In this document: piece by piece, positions 20,712 through 32,483 of the stretch
How positions within the stretch are numbered: the first letter of the stretch is position 1
Layout of the letters: each line of letters begins with the position of its first letter
DNA from: Dictyostelium discoideum
Lineage: Eukaryota
Length of the DNA stretch: 64,000 bases
NCBI GenBank assembly: GCA_000004695.1
Contig: CM000150.2
Location: forward strand, 2,976,001 to 3,040,000
Direction of reading: 5' to 3'
Program-made: the position numbers and the translations under genes
The notes under the pieces: generated by a model
Database searches by the model: none
What the model was told of the DNA's origin: nothing
Seen by the model: only the letters and a program-made list of their open reading frames with translations

Positions 20712-22286
20712 TTAGTTGATTTTAAAAGTTGCAGATATTGAAGTATGGTCAGAAGCATAAAATGGAGAATTAAAAGGTGATAATTTTGAGCATCTACCAC
20801 CAATTTTAAAATCTATTAAAGATAGAATTTGATCATTTGAACGTAATAAGAAATCTATTCTTTTTGAAGGTTTTGAATAAAGTGTTGGAAAAGTGAAACC
20901 ATTTACTAAATCAGTTTCTTTACATCTATCAGTATCTTCAATACCAACAATACTAACAACACCTTCATTATCTTTTAAAAATTGTAATTGTCTATTCTTT
21001 TCATTCTTTTGATTTGGATGATTTGAAAATTCAACCCAAGTATCAATTAAATTATTATTATTATTATTATTATCTTTATAATAATTATTAATATCATAAT
21101 TTCCTAATAAAAATTGAATTGCATTTTCATTTGGTTCTAAATTAAAATCACCCATAAATAAATGTGGTTTTTTAAATGAATTTATCCAATTTAAAGATTC
21201 ATATGCATTTCTTTTTGAACCATCAGTTTCTAATGAAAAATGTGATGTAAATATATTAATTTTTTTTGAAATTTCAAATTGTTGTTGTTGTTTTTTTTTA
21301 AAATTAATTTCAACTCTTAAACAAGATCTTTGATGAGCATCATCAGGTTTTTTAATATCTCTTGATAATTTAATTGAATCAATATTTGAAATTTCATGTT
21401 TTGAAAATATAGATAAACCTTCAAATTGTAAACCAGTACTTGTTGGATATACCATTGATGGTAAATAAACGAAATTATATTTTAAATTTCTTTCACCAAG
21501 TAATTTAAATAAATGTTGAACTTGATTACGTTCTTCACCCATTTTAATTGGATTACTTGATTTCACTTCACTATCCCATGCTGAAAATCTTAATTCTTGA
21601 AATGAAATTACATCTGGTAATTCTTTCTCTATTAAATCCGCCATTAATATTCTTCTATCTTTCCATGGTTCATTAAAATTCCATGTATTATATGACATAA
21701 TTTTAATTGTTTCATTAAAATTATTATTATTATCTTTATTTATATTATTAGTTGATGAAATTGTTGATAAAATATCTTTTTGTTGTTCATCATTATTATT
21801 ATTATTATTTTTATTATTATTATCATTATCATTACATATAAATTGTTGAATTGTAATTAATTTTAAATAATCTTTAAATAATTTAATTGAAAGGTATCTA
21901 CAGTTTGATTCTAAAATTCTTTTTGATTTATAATCTTCAATAATTGTTGTTGTAGATTGATTTCTAATGAATGTTTCATATTGTTTTGATTGTTGAATGG
22001 TTGTATCAACGAAAAGTGTTAACTCATAGAGTGTACCAATTTGAAAATCTTGATATTCAAGTTGGCCATAACTATTATAGGCTGGTTGTTTCAAATTATC
22101 ACCATTTCCATTTGTACTTAAAAATTGTTTTTGTAATTTACCTTCAACTACTTGAAGTTGAAATATTGGATAATTATATTTAATTCGATTCTTTAAATTA
22201 TCAACTTTTTGAAATTTATTTAAATAAAAATATCTATGTAAATTAATTGTTGGTTCAATTTGCTTGAGAAAAAAAAAAAAAAAAAG

Positions 22287-22328
<42 letters not shown>

Positions 22329-22525
22329 AATATATTATTATAATAAATAAATAAATAAATAAATAAATTACATACATCTAATAATTTATTTAATTCTTTT
22401 GAATCTAAAGATAAACTTTCGAATTCACCAACTATACCAGCATTTGAAGTTGGTTCTGAAAAAGTATTATTAATAAATAGTAATACTAAAGTAAATAATA
22501 TTATTGAAAAATGATACATTTCCAT
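20712..22525 (-). CDS. Secreted endonuclease/exonuclease/phosphatase (EEP) family protein; complement(join(20712..22262,22376..22525)), about 566 aa
   Basis: Exon 1, MEMYHFSIILFTLVLLFINNTFS.., is a signal peptide and ends at a gtatgt donor at 22375. Exon 2 follows the acceptor ttctcaag and is in frame with the track ORF. EEP hallmarks are MSYNTWNFNEPW..ISFQE, FMGDFN and YASDHTSI. Confidence 0.7.
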
Positions 22526-23038
22526 TGAATGGATTTGAAGTACTATTATATAAATAAAGATTAAAATAACCAATCTTTATATTTGTTTTTTTTTTTTCAA
22601 ACTGTGTTTCATTTTTTTTTTTGTTTGTGTTTTCACAAAAAAAAAAAAAAAAATTAAAAAAAAAATTAAAAAAAAAATAAAAATATTATTTTTTATTTTT
22701 TATTTTTTTTTATTTATTTTTATTTTTTTGTTTTATTTCAACTGCTTTTCAGGGTTAAATGAATTGATTCAATGAAAATATATAAATAGTTTTTATTAGT
22801 GTGGGAATAATCTATATGGTAAGAATTTTATTTTATTTTAATTTTTTAATTTTTTTATTTTTTATTTTTTAATTTTCACATTTAAAAATATCTTTCGTGG
22901 ATATTTTTATTAAAAAAAAATTAATTTTGGTGTTTTTTTTTTTTTTTTTTTTTTTTTTTTGTGAATAGAATAATTTTTAATTTTTTAGATTACTTTTAAT
23001 TCCTCATCAAAACAAAATAATAAATAAAAAAAAAAAAA

Positions 23039-23433
23039 ATGAGAGATTTATTAAAATTCAAGTAGGTGAATTTGGAAATCAGTTAGAACAATCAACTAAT
23101 ATTAAATCAAATTTAGAATCAATTATTAAAGGTATTCAAGATAATAAGATATTAAAAGTATTCGATAAATTCTACCATCAAGATGTTATAATGTATGAAA
23201 AAGGTGATTCAACTAATCGTGTTGGTAAAGTTGCTAATCGTAAAGCTGAAGAATCCTTTGTTAATAATGCAACAATCCATGAAGCAAAATTATTAAAAAC
23301 AATCATTGATGGTAATAATACAGCATATGAGATGTATATGGATTTCACATATGGCGAACATCGTATCAAAAAGAATCAATGGGCCATTCAACAATGGTCA
23401 AATGGTTTAATCATCAAAGAAGAATTTTATTAA
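23039..23433 (+). CDS. NTF2-like/SnoaL-like small protein. The ATG at 23039 is out of frame by one nt with the downstream domain ORF, which is open from about 23041 to the stop at 23433. Either there is a frameshift in an A4 run, or translation starts at ATG 23191 (80 aa)
   Basis: The downstream frame reads ..IQVGEFGNQLEQSTNIKSNLESIIKGIQDNKILKVFDKFYHQDVIMYEKGDSTNRVGKVANRKAEESFVNN..YEMYMDFTYGEHRIKKNQWAIQQWSNGLIIKEEFY, about 130 aa of SnoaL-like length and pattern. ATG AGA GAT TTA TTA AAA TTC AAG TAG stops after 8 codons; adding one A to the AAAA run restores a continuous ORF. Confidence 0.4.
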
Positions 23434-23456
23434 ATAAACTAAAGTAATTGTAAATT

Positions 23457-23487
<31 letters not shown>

Positions 23488-23590
23488 GTTATTTAATTAA
23501 TTATTTATTTATTATTTTTGTTTATTTTTTTTTAAACAATAAAGTAAAAGATAATAGGTTTTTAATTTTTTTTTTAATTCTCCCAACCAC

Positions 23591-23625
<35 letters not shown>

Positions 23626-23911
23626 GCGACATGGCACTGATTTTCAAATAAAAATTTTACAATTAATTCCCAAACACCAAGGAATCCAATTTTAAAAAAA
23701 AAAATCCATAATCTCTTTTTGCCAAATTTTTTTTTTTTTTTTTTTTATCTCTGATTAAAATAAAGAATTAATTTTAATGTTTTTTTTTTTTTTTTTTTTT
23801 TTTTATATTTAAAATAATTGTAGGAAAAAAAAAAAAAAAAAACAAAATTAAAATAATAATAAAAATAATATAAAAATACAATAAAATAATATTTTAATAA
23901 AATAAAAAAAA

Positions 23912-24916
23912 ATGGAAGATCGTTTACAAGAATTAAGAATAGCTGGTGGTCTTAAACCTCTAGTTGATAAAAAGAATGGTAAAAAAGGTTCAATGGTTGA
24001 AATATCTTTAGAAACACCATCAAGTTCAAAAATATATGATTATAATGAAAATAAAAATGGTGATATTGAATTAGAAATAAATGATCATCCAGATCCGGTT
24101 GAAGAATTTATGCCAGAATTTTATCAAGAAGTTGGTTTAATAAAATCATTAATGACATCAGTTAAAAAGAATATAAGAGCAATCGAAGATAAATATATAT
24201 TATCATTAAATTCAATTAGTATTGAATCACAAAATCAAAAATATGAGGATGATATACAATTAATACTAGAAGTTACAAATAGTTCATTATCTGAATTAAA
24301 GAATAAATTGGATACAATGAAAATAAGTAATGAAAAATATTCATATTCAAAATCATCAACACCCACAGAAGTTCGTATTAGAAATAGTATGTTAAATACA
24401 CTAACTCAAAAATTCATTGAAATGATGAGAGAGTATCAAGAGATTCAAAACAACTATAAAAATAAATATAAAGAAAAAATCGAAAGACAATATAAAATCG
24501 TTAAACCAGAAGCAACCTCTCAAGAAATTAACGATGCAATTCAATCAGGTGACTCTAAAAAGATTTTCGAAGAGACTATTCTCCATACACATTTACATAC
24601 TCATGCTTTGAATGCTTTAGATTATATTCAAGAAAGACATAACGATATTATTAAATTGGAACAAAGTATTAAAGAATTACATCAATTATTTTTAGATATG
24701 GCTGTTTTGGTTCATAATCAAGGTGAGTTGTTAAATGTTATTGAAGATAATATTAATTCTGCTGTATCCGATACAAGAGAGGGTACACAAAATTTACAAG
24801 AAGCTAATAAGCTTCATAAAAAATCAAGAAAGAAAATGTATATTCTTTTAATTATAGTTTCAATTGTTTTGGTAATAATTTTAGTTCCAATTTTAAGTAC
24901 TCAAATTAATAAATAA
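23912..24916 (+). CDS. Syntaxin (Qa t-SNARE) with Habc region, SNARE motif and C-terminal TM anchor, 334 aa, single exon
   Basis: The track ORF carries the SNARE-motif region ALNALDYIQERHNDIIKLEQSIKELHQLFLDMAVLVHNQGELLNVIEDNI and the C-terminal anchor KKMYILLIIVSIVLVIILVPIL. Confidence 0.85.
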   Translation: MEDRLQELRIAGGLKPLVDKKNGKKGSMVEISLETPSSSKIYDYNENKNGDIELEINDHPDPVEEFMPEFYQEVGLIKSLMTSVKKNIRAIEDKYILSLNSISIESQNQKYEDDIQLILEVTNSSLSELKNKLDTMKISNEKYSYSKSSTPTEVRIRNSMLNTLTQKFIEMMREYQEIQNNYKNKYKEKIERQYKIVKPEATSQEINDAIQSGDSKKIFEETILHTHLHTHALNALDYIQERHNDIIKLEQSIKELHQLFLDMAVLVHNQGELLNVIEDNINSAVSDTREGTQNLQEANKLHKKSRKKMYILLIIVSIVLVIILVPILSTQINK

Positions 24917-25126
24917 TTAAATATATATATATATTTAATTAAATAGTGTTTAAAATTATCTATATCTAATTTAACATTCAAAATATTTTATTGTTTATTT
25001 AATTTTTATTTAATGTTTATTATTTAAACCGATTGTTGAATTGCTTTTTTTTAGTTCAACTATTTTTTTTTTTTTTGAGAAATAATTTTTTGAAAAAAAA
25101 AAAAATAACTGAAATTAAAAAAAAAA

Positions 25127-25134
25127 TCCCATAA
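25127..25134 (+). promoter_or_regulatory. DUSE-like element (TCCCATAA, fits the [AT]CCCA[CT]AA pattern) about 64 nt upstream of the Class I RNA
   Basis: The motif is read directly; its spacing to the predicted RNA 5' end matches the reported position of about -60 for DUSE in Dictyostelium snRNA and Class I RNA genes. Confidence 0.5.
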
Positions 25135-25191
25135 AAAATTTATTATTAAAAATTGTTTTACTAATTAATAGATTTTTTACAATTATTAAAC

Positions 25192-25250
25192 AAGCTCGCC
25201 TTACAGCAATTACTCTGATTTTTCTCCAAAAAAAAAACCTTCGCGAGTTG
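25192..25250 (+). ncRNA. Dictyostelid Class I small ncRNA (about 58 nt)
   Basis: It contains the exact 11-nt Class I motif CCTTACAGCAA (25199-25209), placed immediately 3' of a short 5' stem strand GCTCGC. That strand can pair with GCGAGT at 25243-25248 to give the usual 5'/3' terminal stem. A T-run follows, and the DUSE-like box lies about 64 nt upstream. Confidence 0.65.
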
Positions 25251-25256
25251 TCCTTT

Positions 25257-25295
<39 letters not shown>

Positions 25296-26228
25296 TTGCC
25301 AATATTGGTAATTATATATAAAGGAACACACAATTAATATTATATGAATGCTGTAAAGCGAGAATCAAAACTAACTTTATTTTTTTTTTTTTTTTTATAA
25401 CCCAAAAAGAAAAAATTTACATTTTTTTTTTTTTATGACCCAACTAACCGTTAAAAAAAAAAAAAAAAAAATAATTAAAAAAAGAAAAAATAAAAATAAA
25501 AAAATAAATAAATAATTAAATAAAAAAAAAAAAAAAAAAAAATAAAATTCAGGAAAAAAAATTTCATTTCTGGTACTCATATTACAACAACAAGGAACAA
25601 CAATTTTTTTAAAAAGCAATTGAAAAAAAAAAAAAAACAAAAAAAAAAAAGAAAATATTATCGAAATGATCGCGAAAAATGACAATTAATTTTTTTTTTT
25701 TTAATTGAATTCATTTTGTGAATATATGGATATAAAAATAACCTGATGCCAACACATCGCCTTCACCAAACATTTTTCTTTTGGATGGCCACTTTATTCG
25801 AAATATGACTTTTATCTTTAGACATATTATTATTATTTTTATTTTCTTTTTAACTAAAAAAAAAAAAAAAAAAAACTATAAATTTAAAAAAAAAACAAAC
25901 TATTTTTTTTAATTTATAAAGGGTTAATAATAATAAAATAATAATTTATATAACTCCATAATTAAATATTCATTATATTATTATTTTTTTTTTTTATATA
26001 AAAAAAAAAAAAACAAAAAAAAAAAAAAAAATATTTTACCTTACTTAATAATAAATTATTCAATTTATTATTTTCATTCATATAACTTATTTATAGTTCA
26101 AATTATATTAAAAAAAAAAAAAAAATTTTATAAAAAATTTTTTTAACTAAATATTATTTTTTTTTAAAACAAATAATTTATTTTCAAATTATTAAAAAAA
26201 AAAAAAATTAATATATAATTTTTCCAAA

Positions 26229-29200
26229 ATGGAAGAAAATAGTAATAAATTTGAACAAGAATTAAAAGAAATTGGCCAAGATAGAAATCAATTTCCGCAT
26301 ATAAGTGTTGAAGAATCTCTTCAAGAATTTGATTCATTCTCAAATAAAATCGAAAATGAATCAAAACAATTTGGAGCTCAAAAAGATCCAGAATCTTATA
26401 TGGCAGGTGGTGAAACTGAAGAAGATTTCAAATTAAGAAAATATTTTGAAAACTCTGAAAGAATGCATCTTGAAAATGGTGGTAATGAAAAAAAAATGGG
26501 TGTTTCCATTAGAAATTTAACTGTTGTTGGTCTTGGTGCCGATGCATCTGTAATTGCTGATATGTCAACTCCATTTTTTAGTATTTTAAATTTTTTTAAA
26601 CCATCATTTTGGTAAGTAAAAAAATGGTATTATTATTATTATTTTAATTTTAAAGTTTACTAATTATTATTATTTTTTTTTTTATTATTTATAGGACTAA
26701 AAAAACATCAACATTTGATATTTTACATGATGTTACAACATTTTGTAAAGATGGTGAAATGGTTTTAGTTTTAGGTAGACCAGGTGCTGGTTGTTCAACT
26801 TTATTACGTGTTATTGCAAATCAAACTGCATCATATGTTTCAGTTAAAGGTGATGTTAGATATGGCGGTATTCCATCAAAAGAGTTTGAAAGATATAGAG
26901 CTGAATCTATTTATACACCAGAAGAAGATTCACATCATCCAACTTTAACAGTTCGTGAAACTTTAGATTTTGCATTAAAATGTAAAACTCCAGGTAATCG
27001 TTTACCAGATGAAACTAAAAGATCTTTCCGTGAAAAAGTTTTTAATTTATTATTATCAATGTTTGGTATTGTTCATCAAGCTGATACTGTAAGTTTTCTT
27101 TTTTTTTATTTATTTATAAAATAATTTTTTTTTTTTTTATCTTTTGCTAATTACTTTTTTTTTTTTTCCTAAATAAAATAGATTGTCGGTAATGAATATG
27201 TTAGAGGTTTATCAGGTGGTGAAAGAAAACGTTTAACAATTACAGAAGCAATGGTATCATCAGCATCAATTACATGTTGGGATTGTTCAACTCGTGGTCT
27301 TGATGCAGCATCAGCATTTGATTATGCAAAATCAATTCGTATTATGTCTGATACATTACACAAAACAACAATTGCATCATTTTATCAAGCATCCGATTCA
27401 ATTTATAATGTATTTGATAAAGTTTGTGTTTTAGAAAAAGGTCGTTGTATTTATTTTGGTCCAGTTGGTATGGCAAAACAATATTTTATGAGCTTGGGTT
27501 TCGATTGTGAACCAAGAAAATCAACACCAGATTTTTTAACTGGTGTAACAAATCCACAAGAACGTATTATTAAAAAAGGTTTTGAAGGTCGTACTCCAGA
27601 AACTTCAGCCGATTTTGAAGCAGCATGGAAAAACTCTGATATATATAGAGATCAACTTCAAGAACAAAAAGAATATGAAGAATTAATTGAAAGAACTCAA
27701 CCAAAAGTTGCATTTGTTCAAGAGGTAAAAGATGAAAATAGTAAAACCAATTTCAAAAAATCACAATATACTACAAGTTTTATTACGCAAGTTGTTGCAT
27801 TAACTAAAAGAAATTTTCAATTGATTTTAAATGATAAATTTGGTCTTTTCACAAAATATCTTTCAGTATTAATTCAAGCATTTGTATATTCATCTGTTTT
27901 CTATAATATGGCAAGTGATATTAATGGTTTATTTACTAGAGGTGGTGCAATTCTTTCAGCTGTAATTTTCAATGCTTTTCTCTCTGTTGGTGAAATGTCA
28001 ATGACTTTCATTGGTCGCCGTGTCTTACAAAAACATAAGAGTTATGCTTTATATCGTCCATCTGCTTTACATATTGCACAAGTTGTTAACGATATTCCGT
28101 TTACATTACTTCAAGTATTCTTATTTTCAATTATTGCATACTTTATGTTTGGTTTGGAATATGATGGTGGTAAATTCTTTATTTTCAGTTTTACATTGGT
28201 TGGTGCAAGCTTAGCATGTACAGCACTTTTCAGATGTTTTGGTTACCTTTGTCCATCGATGTATATCGCTCAAAATATTTCAAATGTTTTCATCATTTTC
28301 ATGCTTACCTATTCTGGTTATACAGTACCAATTCCAAAAATGCATCCATGGTTCAGTTGGTTTAGACATATCAATATCTTTACCTATGCATTTAAAGCAA
28401 TTATGGCAAATGAATTTGAAGGTAAAGAATTTAATTGTTTAGAATCTGCAATTCCATATGGTCCAGCATATCAAGGTTCAGAGTTTGATGCATATAGAAT
28501 TTGTCCATTAGGTGGTATTGAACAAGGTAGTCTCTACTTTAAAGGTGAGTTTTATATGGATAAAACTTTAAGATTCAAAGAAGGTGAAATGTCACAAAAT
28601 GTCATCATTGTTTATTGTTGGTGGATTTTCTTTGTAATTTGTAATATGCTTGCAATGGAATATATTGATCATACAAGTGGCGGTTATACTCATAAAGTTT
28701 ACAAAAAAGGTAAAGCTCCAAAAATGAATGATGTTGAAGAAGAAAAACAACAAAATGCCATTGTAGCAAATGCAACAAACAACATGAAAGATACTCTTCA
28801 TATGGATGGTGGTATTTTCACATGGCAAAACATTAGATACACTGTCAAAGTTCCAGGTGGTGAAAGATTATTATTAAACAATATTGAAGGTTGGATTAAA
28901 CCAGGTCAAATGACAGCTTTAATGGGTTCATCGGGTGCTGGTAAAACAACTTTACTCGATGTTTTAGCAAAGAGAAAAACTTTGGGTGTTGTTGAAGGTG
29001 ATTCACATTTAAATGGTAGAGAATTAGAAATTGATTTTGAACGTATTACTGGTTATGTAGAACAAATGGATGTCCACAATCCAGGTTTAACAGTTAGAGA
29101 AGCATTACGTTTCTCTGCAAAATTACGTCAAGAACCAGAGGTATCATTAGAAGAGAAATTTAAATATGTTGAACATGTTTTAGAAATGATGGAAATGAAA

Positions 29201-30724
29201 CATTTAGGTGATGCATTAATTGGTACATTAGAAACTGGTGTTGGTATTTCAGTTGAAGAAAGAAAAAGATTAACAATTGGTGTTGAATTGGTTGCAAAAC
29301 CACAAATTCTTTTCCTTGATGAACCAACATCTGGTTTAGATGCTCAATCATCATATAATATCATTAAATTTATTCGTAAATTAGCAGATGCAGGTATGCC
29401 ATTAGTTTGTACAATTCATCAACCATCATCAGTATTATTTGAACATTTTGATCGTATTCTTTTATTAGCTAAAGGTGGTAAAACAGTATATTTCGGTGAT
29501 ATTGGTGAAAAATCAAAAACTTTAACATCATACTTTGAACGTCATGGTGTTCGTCCATGTACTGAGAGTGAAAATCCAGCAGAATATATTTTAGAAGCAA
29601 CTGGTGCAGGTGTTCATGGTAAGTCTGATGTTAATTGGCCAGAAACTTGGAAACAATCACCAGAATTAGCAGATATTTCAAGGGAATTAGCAGCATTAAA
29701 AGAACAAGGTGCACAACAATATAAAATAAGAAGTGATGGACCAGCAAGAGAATTCTCACAATCAACATGGTATCAAACTAAAGAAGTTTATAAACGTTTA
29801 AATTTAATTTGGTGGAGAGATCCATACTATACATATGGTTCATTCGTTCAATCAGCACTTTGTGGTTTAATTATTGGTTTTACATTTTGGAATCTTCAAG
29901 GTTCAAGTAGTGATATGAATCAAAGAATTTTCTTTATTTTCGAAGCACTCATGTTAGGTATCTTATTGATTTTCGTTGTAATGCCACAATTAATTAGTCA
30001 GCGTGAATACTTTAAGAGAGATTTTGCCAGTAAATTCTATTCATGGTTCCCATTTGCAATTTCAATTGTTGTTGTAGAATTACCATTCATCGTTATTTCA
30101 GGTACAATTTTCTTCTTTTGTTCATTCTGGACCGCAGGATTGGATAAAACTAGTGATAGTGAACAAACCTTTTACTTCTGGTTCATTTTCGTTATCTTTT
30201 TGTTTTTCTGTGTTTCTTTCGGTCAAGCAGTAGCAGCAGTTTGTATCAATATGTTCTTTGCAATGACATTGATTCCATTGTTAATTGTTTTCCTATTTCT
30301 TTTCTCAGGAGTTATGACCCCCCCATCATCAATTCCAACCTTTTGGAGAGGATGGGTGTATCATTTAAACCCATGTCGTTACTTTATGGAAGGTATTGTT
30401 ACAAATATTTTAAAAACTGTCGATGTTAAATGTTCATATGAAGATATGATCACTTTTACATTCCCAAAGAGTTATAATACTTGTCAAAACTACACTAGTG
30501 CTTTTCAATCATATGGACCATCCGGTTATGTTGAGAGTTCCATATTAAATGGTGAACCAGCCTGTAGTTATTGTATCTATAAAAATGGTGAACAATATTA
30601 CAAAACACTTGGTTGGTCAGATGATAATCGTTGGAGAAATGTTGGTATTATCATTTGTTTCTTTGTTTTCAATATTTTAATGGTTATCTTATTTGTTTAT
30701 TTAACTAGAAAAGGAAGTAGATAA
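26229..30724 (+). CDS. Full-size ABC transporter, G family, PDR type (NBD-TMD-NBD-TMD), copy 1; join(26229..26611,26695..27088,27182..30724), 1439 aa
   Basis: Three track ORFs are joined by two gtaagt introns, phase-checked (TG|G gives Trp; ..ADT|[18 protein letters not shown]). Both NBDs show Walker A (GRPGAGCST and GSSGAGKTT), signature (LSGGERKR and VEERKRL) and Walker B, and there are two 6-TM domains. Confidence 0.9.
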
Positions 30725-32381: not shown

Positions 32382-32411
32382 AACGATCTTATTCTTATTT
32401 TTTCATAAAAG

Positions 32412-32483
32412 CTCCCCATTCGGGAATCGAACCCGAGGTACCAGTGTGAAAGACTAGAGTGTTACCGACTACACCAATGAGGA
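32412..32483 (-). tRNA. tRNA-Glu (anticodon UUC), 72 nt plus discriminator G
   Basis: The reverse complement reads TCCTCATTGGTGTAGTCGGTAACACTCTAGTCTTTCACACTGGTACCTCGGGTTCGATTCCCGAATGGGGAG. It has a 7-bp acceptor stem, a 5-bp anticodon stem with loop CTTTCAC (U33, UUC, A37), and a T-arm TCGGG/TTCGATT/CCCGA. Confidence 0.9.

Follow-up and report, generated by a model that had tools for sequence, protein, structure and literature searches.

DdR-35, a catalogued Class I RNA gene with an upstream DUSE, lies between a syntaxin and an ABC-transporter gene of Dictyostelium discoideum

The window analyzed here is a 64,000-nt stretch of D. discoideum chromosome 1 (GCA_000004695.1, contig CM000150.2, positions 2,976,001 to 3,040,000, forward strand); unless stated otherwise, coordinates count from its first letter. 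Its small RNA gene DdR-35 is intergenic and lies in a 1.3-kb A/T-rich spacer that leads from a syntaxin gene to a gene for a PDR-type ABC transporter, both on the same strand. The upstream neighbor, an ORF of 334 aa at 23912-24916 (+), matches Pfam Syntaxin (6.5e-22) and SNARE (1.6e-12) and has a hydrophobic tail, which bears out an earlier note, made from the sequence alone, that had set a small RNA gene 3' of a syntaxin gene. DdR-35 begins 278 nt past the syntaxin stop codon (24916), on the same strand. The downstream neighbor, ~1 kb from DdR-35, is a multi-exon PDR/ABCG-type ABC-transporter gene at 26229-30724 (+), with a 1439-aa product in the assembly GCA_054883475.1. The locus itself has no plus-strand ORF and is richer in G+C than its surroundings (40.4% over the 57 nt of DdR-35, 23.0% in the window), both as the note had observed; a mechanical low-complexity ORF of 96 aa on the minus strand (25395-25685) lies downstream of DdR-35 and does not overlap it. 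Class I RNAs range around 60 nt and 32-41% G+C (Kjellin et al., 2021).

Window positions 20912-27916 are 99.7% identical to GCA_054883475.1 (JBTAPE010000039.1, L001 1-7005), with one mismatch and six gap openings. DdR-35 is unchanged there and the syntaxin protein, on a 3.2-Mb contig, is exactly the same; from this comparison, the window and JBTAPE010000039.1 appear to represent one species in two assemblies or strains.

Scanning the full 64-kb window against Rfam 15 at gathering thresholds gave two matches, a tRNA and RF01414 (Dicty_Class_I_RNA). The RF01414 match spans 25194-25250 (+) and model positions 1-56 of 56; its 45.2 bits exceed the gathering threshold of 41.5 bits, with E = 1.9e-5 for the window against 4227 families and E = 8.8e-7 in a local Rfam search. 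At 45.2 bits and E = 1.9e-5, chance origin of the whole feature is far outside expectation. The tRNA match (56.3 bits) is a tRNA-Glu gene with anticodon UUC at 32411-32483 (-), on which ARAGORN agrees.

The curated D. discoideum Class I set has been published (Kjellin et al., 2021, Genome Res 31:436, PMC7919456), and in a script comparison its member DdR-35 (file ddi_curated.fa of the supplement) proved identical to 25194-25250 at 57 of 57 positions. Supplementary Tables S2 and S3 of that paper locate DdR-35 on DDB0232428 (chromosome 1), 3001192-3001250, + strand, in agreement with window position 1 being chromosome 1 position 2,976,001. They list a length of 57 nt, a CM score of 37.8, a classifier score of 56.7, the DUSE TCCCATAA, a duse_dist of 58 and N/A for the TGTG box. 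Sequence, strand, DUSE octamer, DUSE distance (25192 - 25134 = 58) and the absence of a TGTG box are all equal in the window and the published record, and there are no differences. By its sequence, the locus is a gene that Kjellin et al. have already named and catalogued, a fact absent from the note, and its novelty is therefore gone. The proposal of a Class I RNA gene at this site thus holds in both of the comparisons that the earlier note had suggested, with a covariance model and with the known Class I RNAs; that note, working from raw sequence, fixed the 57-nt ncRNA gene, along with its stem and promoter box, to within 1-2 bases.

Table 1. Features of the DdR-35 gene in the window.
Feature	Position	Strand	Basis
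DUSE (Dictyostelium upstream sequence element) TCCCATAA, putative promoter box	25127-25134	+	Exact match to WCCCAYAA
AA ahead of the 5' G ("AAG" start)	25192-25193	+	Read from sequence
Mature Class I RNA DdR-35	25194-25251	+	CM/curated 57 nt = 25194-25250; probably 58 nt with terminal U
Terminal stem, 5' strand GCUCGC	25194-25199	+	Pairs with 25243-25248 in MFE, centroid and RNAalifold consensus
11-nt Class I motif CCUUACAGCAA (DNA CCTTACAGCAA)	25199-25209	+	Exact match
Variable A/U-rich internal region with A10 tract and CCUUC before the 3' stem	25210-25242	+	Variable loop of Rfam model
Terminal stem, 3' strand GCGAGU	25243-25248	+	MFE and centroid folds, RNAalifold
T-run TTTT-A-T31, probable Pol III terminator	25254-25289	+	Read from sequence; termination function inferred

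The elements of the gene (Table 1) follow the family pattern. The 11-nt consensus that the note had given, the Group 4 form of the motif, is right, being exact in 30 of the 37 curated D. discoideum Class I RNAs; the motif sits where it had been placed and is unique in the 64 kb, on both strands and even at one mismatch. Its first C is also the last base of the 5' stem strand, and, as with the curated RNAs, the motif starts at RNA position 6. The two stem strands, the second of which begins 34 positions after the motif end, are complementary as claimed: their pairs are G-U, C-G, U-A, C-G, G-C and C-G, six out of six standard with one wobble. An A at 25193 precedes the 5' strand and a T at 25249 follows the 3' strand. 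Folding of 25193-25251 with RNAfold, a check that had been proposed for the terminal stem, recovers the 6 bp in the MFE structure and again in the centroid. The energy of the fold does not stand out from that of shuffled sequences (z = -0.65), as expected where a 6-bp stem closes an unstructured A/U-rich loop; in Class I RNAs this internal region is highly variable (Kjellin et al., 2021).

D. discoideum Class I RNAs begin at an invariant G, and the two nucleotides before it are conserved A (Kjellin et al., 2021). At the other end, DdR-35 finishes in UUGU (25248-25251), where the family has a near-invariant CUGU; the closing pair is therefore G-U, with the first U of UUGU pairing the 5' G as a wobble, and not G-C. 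Among the 37 curated D. discoideum RNAs, the UUGU end is found in DdR-35 and DdR-36 only, both of them accepted, expressed members. Because the CUGU end is part of mature Class I RNAs (Kjellin et al., 2021), mature DdR-35 with its terminal U is, by analogy, probably 58 nt long (25194-25251). The length of about 58 nt given in the note fits this range of 57-58 nt.

The putative promoter box is present as the note had said, but the distance needs amending: the "about 64 nt" to the 5' end counts from the middle of the box, whereas its last base, 25134, is 58 nt before the AAG start (25192) and 60 nt before the G at 25194. The published DUSE consensus is [A/T]CCCA[C/T]AA, and it precedes either the start or a TGTG box by about 60 nt; the TGTG box, an optional element of Group 4 only, is missing from Groups 1-3 and from several expressed Class I genes (Kjellin et al., 2021). 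The TGTG box AAATGTG does not occur in 24900-25300. Taken singly, the DUSE octamer pattern is no rarer in the window than chance would have it (3 occurrences, 9.7 expected from shuffles), and the DUSE therefore counts by its spacing alone. Neither fold energy nor octamer is informative singly; their combination and the spacing are.

Two other DUSE-like boxes, ACCCATAA at 21150 and 62993, were rejected as promoters: no covariance-model match lies downstream of them, and the octamer is scarcer than shuffles predict. The copy at 21150 (+) is followed two bases on by a TGTG-box AAATGTG (21150-21166), the two boxes being adjacent and not 60 nt apart, which looks like chance; this site is covered by an Exo_endo_phos gene called on the minus strand, with no RNA-model match downstream.

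The family literature points to a DUSE at about -60 as a requirement for expression (Kjellin et al., 2021). By analogy with the family, the DUSE 58-60 nt upstream would direct transcription from, or from just before, the G at 25194, without a TGTG box in between. The T-run noted past the RNA is there, two C being followed by TTTT (25254-25257), an A and T31 (25259-25289). T-runs lie downstream of many Class I genes, and transcription by Pol III has been suggested (Kjellin et al., 2021). Because of these T-runs, DdR-35 is probably transcribed by RNA polymerase III as well, and its transcription would end in the T-run that starts 3 nt past the RNA.

In D. discoideum, Class I genes are always intergenic, independent units and are often clustered (Kjellin et al., 2021). 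A cluster in the window was considered and rejected: DdR-35 is solitary in the 64 kb by Rfam and by a covariance model of our own, and no further Class I gene emerged from the Rfam gathering scan, from the local Rfam search at E up to 10 or from this model. The latter was built from 14 family members, including the window sequence, and run over all 64 kb with filters off; DdR-35 scored 63.5 bits, by construction, and the runner-up, with a broken stem and no motif, 15.1 bits.

Close to the gene, an inverted partial copy of it was found. On the minus strand at 25349-25362, 98 nt past the 3' end of the curated RNA (25250), CTCGCTTTACAGCA matches the DdR-35 5' stem plus motif, CTCGCCTTACAGCA, at 13 of 14 positions; matches to CTCGCCTTACAGCA with up to two mismatches are expected 0.03 times in the window. 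The similarity is confined to these 14 nt, and its local-alignment score was reached by 5 of 1000 shuffles. A second full Class I gene at 25349-25362 was rejected: the copy lacks a partner for the 3' side of the stem, the minus strand offers no DUSE, and the covariance model gives no score. The inverted 14-mer is most likely what remains of a partial duplication in inverted orientation; on a plus-strand read-through transcript it would pair with the motif.

The search for repeats near DdR-35 was swamped by A/T homopolymer noise. A 22-nt direct repeat (+), T13-AT[A/G]ACCCAA, is seen farther downstream as T13-ATAACCCAA (25384-25405) and T13-ATGACCCAA (25422-25443), the copies being 38 nt apart. 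The first copy holds ACCCAAAA (25400-25407), the DUSE variant listed for DdR-56 (Kjellin et al., 2021); about 60 nt downstream of this box there is only a poly-A tract, with no covariance-model match.

The terminal stem of Class I RNAs is conserved in structure, not in sequence (Kjellin et al., 2021), and DdR-35 illustrates this. The stem GUUGAC/GUCAAC is present in 24 of the 37 curated D. discoideum RNAs, GCUCGC/GCGAGU in DdR-35 and DdR-36. Relative to the majority, both sides differ at pair 2 (U-A to C-G), pair 4 (G-C to C-G) and pair 5 (A-U to G-C), and one side differs at pair 1, where G-C is replaced by the wobble G-U. In an RNAalifold alignment of the window sequence and 13 family members (n = 14), the consensus is exactly the 6-bp terminal stem, with both-sided changes at three of six pairs and no broken pairs; two of these three changes come from DdR-35 and DdR-36 only. 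This covariation agrees with the structural conservation described for the family.

Published RNA-seq data from 0, 4 and 8 h (duplicates, six libraries) assign DdR-35 77,909-156,702 reads per library and a read coverage flag of 1, i.e., expressed (Kjellin et al., 2021). By that table, DdR-35 is reported as an abundant RNA both in growing cells and after 4 h and 8 h of development, although some reads may be cross-assigned between DdR-35 and DdR-36, its near-identical paralogue. The earlier note had said that its reading would fall with a lack of small-RNA reads, with a terminal stem missing from the lowest-energy structure or with a wrong consensus. Reads are reported, the stem is in that structure and the consensus is right; its elements are confirmed at, or within a few bases of, the positions it gave.

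Class I RNAs, said to have been first described by Aspegren et al. in 2004, are of interest as dictyostelid-restricted, very abundant molecules tied to aggregative multicellularity. Functional evidence comes chiefly from DdR-21, which is bound by Rnp1A, a protein with two RRMs, and without which multicellular development is not normal; the 11-nt motif of Class I RNAs is single-stranded by prediction and, for DdR-21, by probing, and protein sponging or mRNA pairing have been proposed as mechanisms (Kjellin et al., 2021). By analogy, the ~58-nt product of DdR-35 would have its 5' and 3' ends closed in the 6-bp stem and would display the 11-nt motif single-stranded beside it. It may bind Rnp1A, as does DdR-21, the sole member tested, and would belong to a large pool of Class I RNAs whose effect is to modulate early multicellular development, through protein titration or mRNA pairing. 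It is close to certain that window positions 25127-25289 (+) hold the complete DdR-35 gene, one of about 40 D. discoideum Class I ncRNAs. The locus gives no fresh handle on the Class I mechanism and no addition to biology.

Could the locus instead be a silent pseudogene, or a chance look-alike that yields no stable RNA? Unexpressed high-scoring loci exist in D. discoideum, e.g., r45/DdR-45 with a CM score of 40, r43 and r54, and a covariance-model match alone is therefore no proof of expression; r54, DdR-57, DdR-62 and DdR-64 are silent even with correctly spaced DUSE and TGTG boxes (Kjellin et al., 2021). Most high-scoring loci without a correctly placed DUSE are silent, however, and most unexpressed loci lack a correctly spaced one (Kjellin et al., 2021), whereas DdR-35 has, at the canonical 58 nt, the DUSE variant that scores highest, besides a fully intact stem and an exact motif. 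Together with the published 78,000-157,000 reads per library and expression flag 1 (Kjellin et al., 2021), some of which may be cross-mapped from DdR-36, this makes a silent locus highly improbable. The RNA might also be processed out of the 3' UTR of the syntaxin mRNA, or out of read-through from that gene, to which its strand and its position only 278 nt past the stop codon would be suited. Such an origin has next to no probability: DdR-35 has its own DUSE at the family-typical spacing, its paralogue DdR-36 on DDB0232430 has the same octamer at a distance of 60, A/T-rich stretches typical of D. discoideum gene flanks separate the stop codon from DdR-35, and the Class I genes of D. discoideum are all described as independent units in intergenic DNA (Kjellin et al., 2021).

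Because snRNA and other ncRNA genes of D. discoideum likewise have a DUSE upstream (Kjellin et al., 2021), and the CUGA tetramer at 25215-25218 could be taken for a D box, another type of DUSE-driven small RNA, for instance an snRNA or a box C/D snoRNA with the motif by chance, was considered too. We give this no credence: the DdR-35 sequence has no C box (UGAUGA), no other Rfam family matches the interval at E up to 10, and it is the Class I model that is matched over its full length. A different kind of departure would keep the Class I identity and hold either that the inverted 14-mer is a functional antisense element or that DdR-35 and DdR-36 form a functionally distinct subfamily. The subfamily version arises because these two RNAs have their own stem, a G-U closing pair and an ancestral-type promoter without a TGTG box. 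If the antisense version were true, the 14-mer, carried either by a minus-strand transcript or by one that continues past the T-run, would pair with the 11-nt motif, mask it and provide locus-specific Class I control. There is only a slim chance that either version is right.

Within Class I, DdR-35 is best compared with its paralogue and with the majority type. DdR-36 is located on another chromosome record (DDB0232430, 2300516-2300575, minus strand) and has the same DUSE octamer at a distance of 60 (Kjellin et al., 2021). It shares with DdR-35 the stem GCUCGC/GCGAGU, the UUG 3' end, the motif, the DUSE TCCCATAA, the lack of a TGTG box and similar expression, and differs in length (58 vs. 57 nt) and by small changes in its loop (GAAUUUUU vs. 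GAUUUUU, A9CCC vs. A10CC). Among the matches listed in the supplements of Kjellin et al., DdR-35-type stems appear in the D. discoideum files only. With DdR-21 and the majority type, DdR-35 has in common the 11-nt motif, a 6-bp terminal stem, a 5' G, a length of about 55-60 nt, a DUSE and developmental regulation; the knockout phenotype, Rnp1A binding and structure probing are data for DdR-21 only. The majority stem GUUGAC/GUCAAC has a CUG end, whereas DdR-35 is changed on both sides at three pairs and closes with G-U. Most majority-type genes have their DUSE 70-90 nt upstream and a TGTG box 60 nt past the DUSE; in DdR-35, by contrast, the DUSE is placed directly at 58-60 nt, and this DUSE-direct layout of DdR-35 and DdR-36 is the layout of the other dictyostelid groups (Kjellin et al., 2021).
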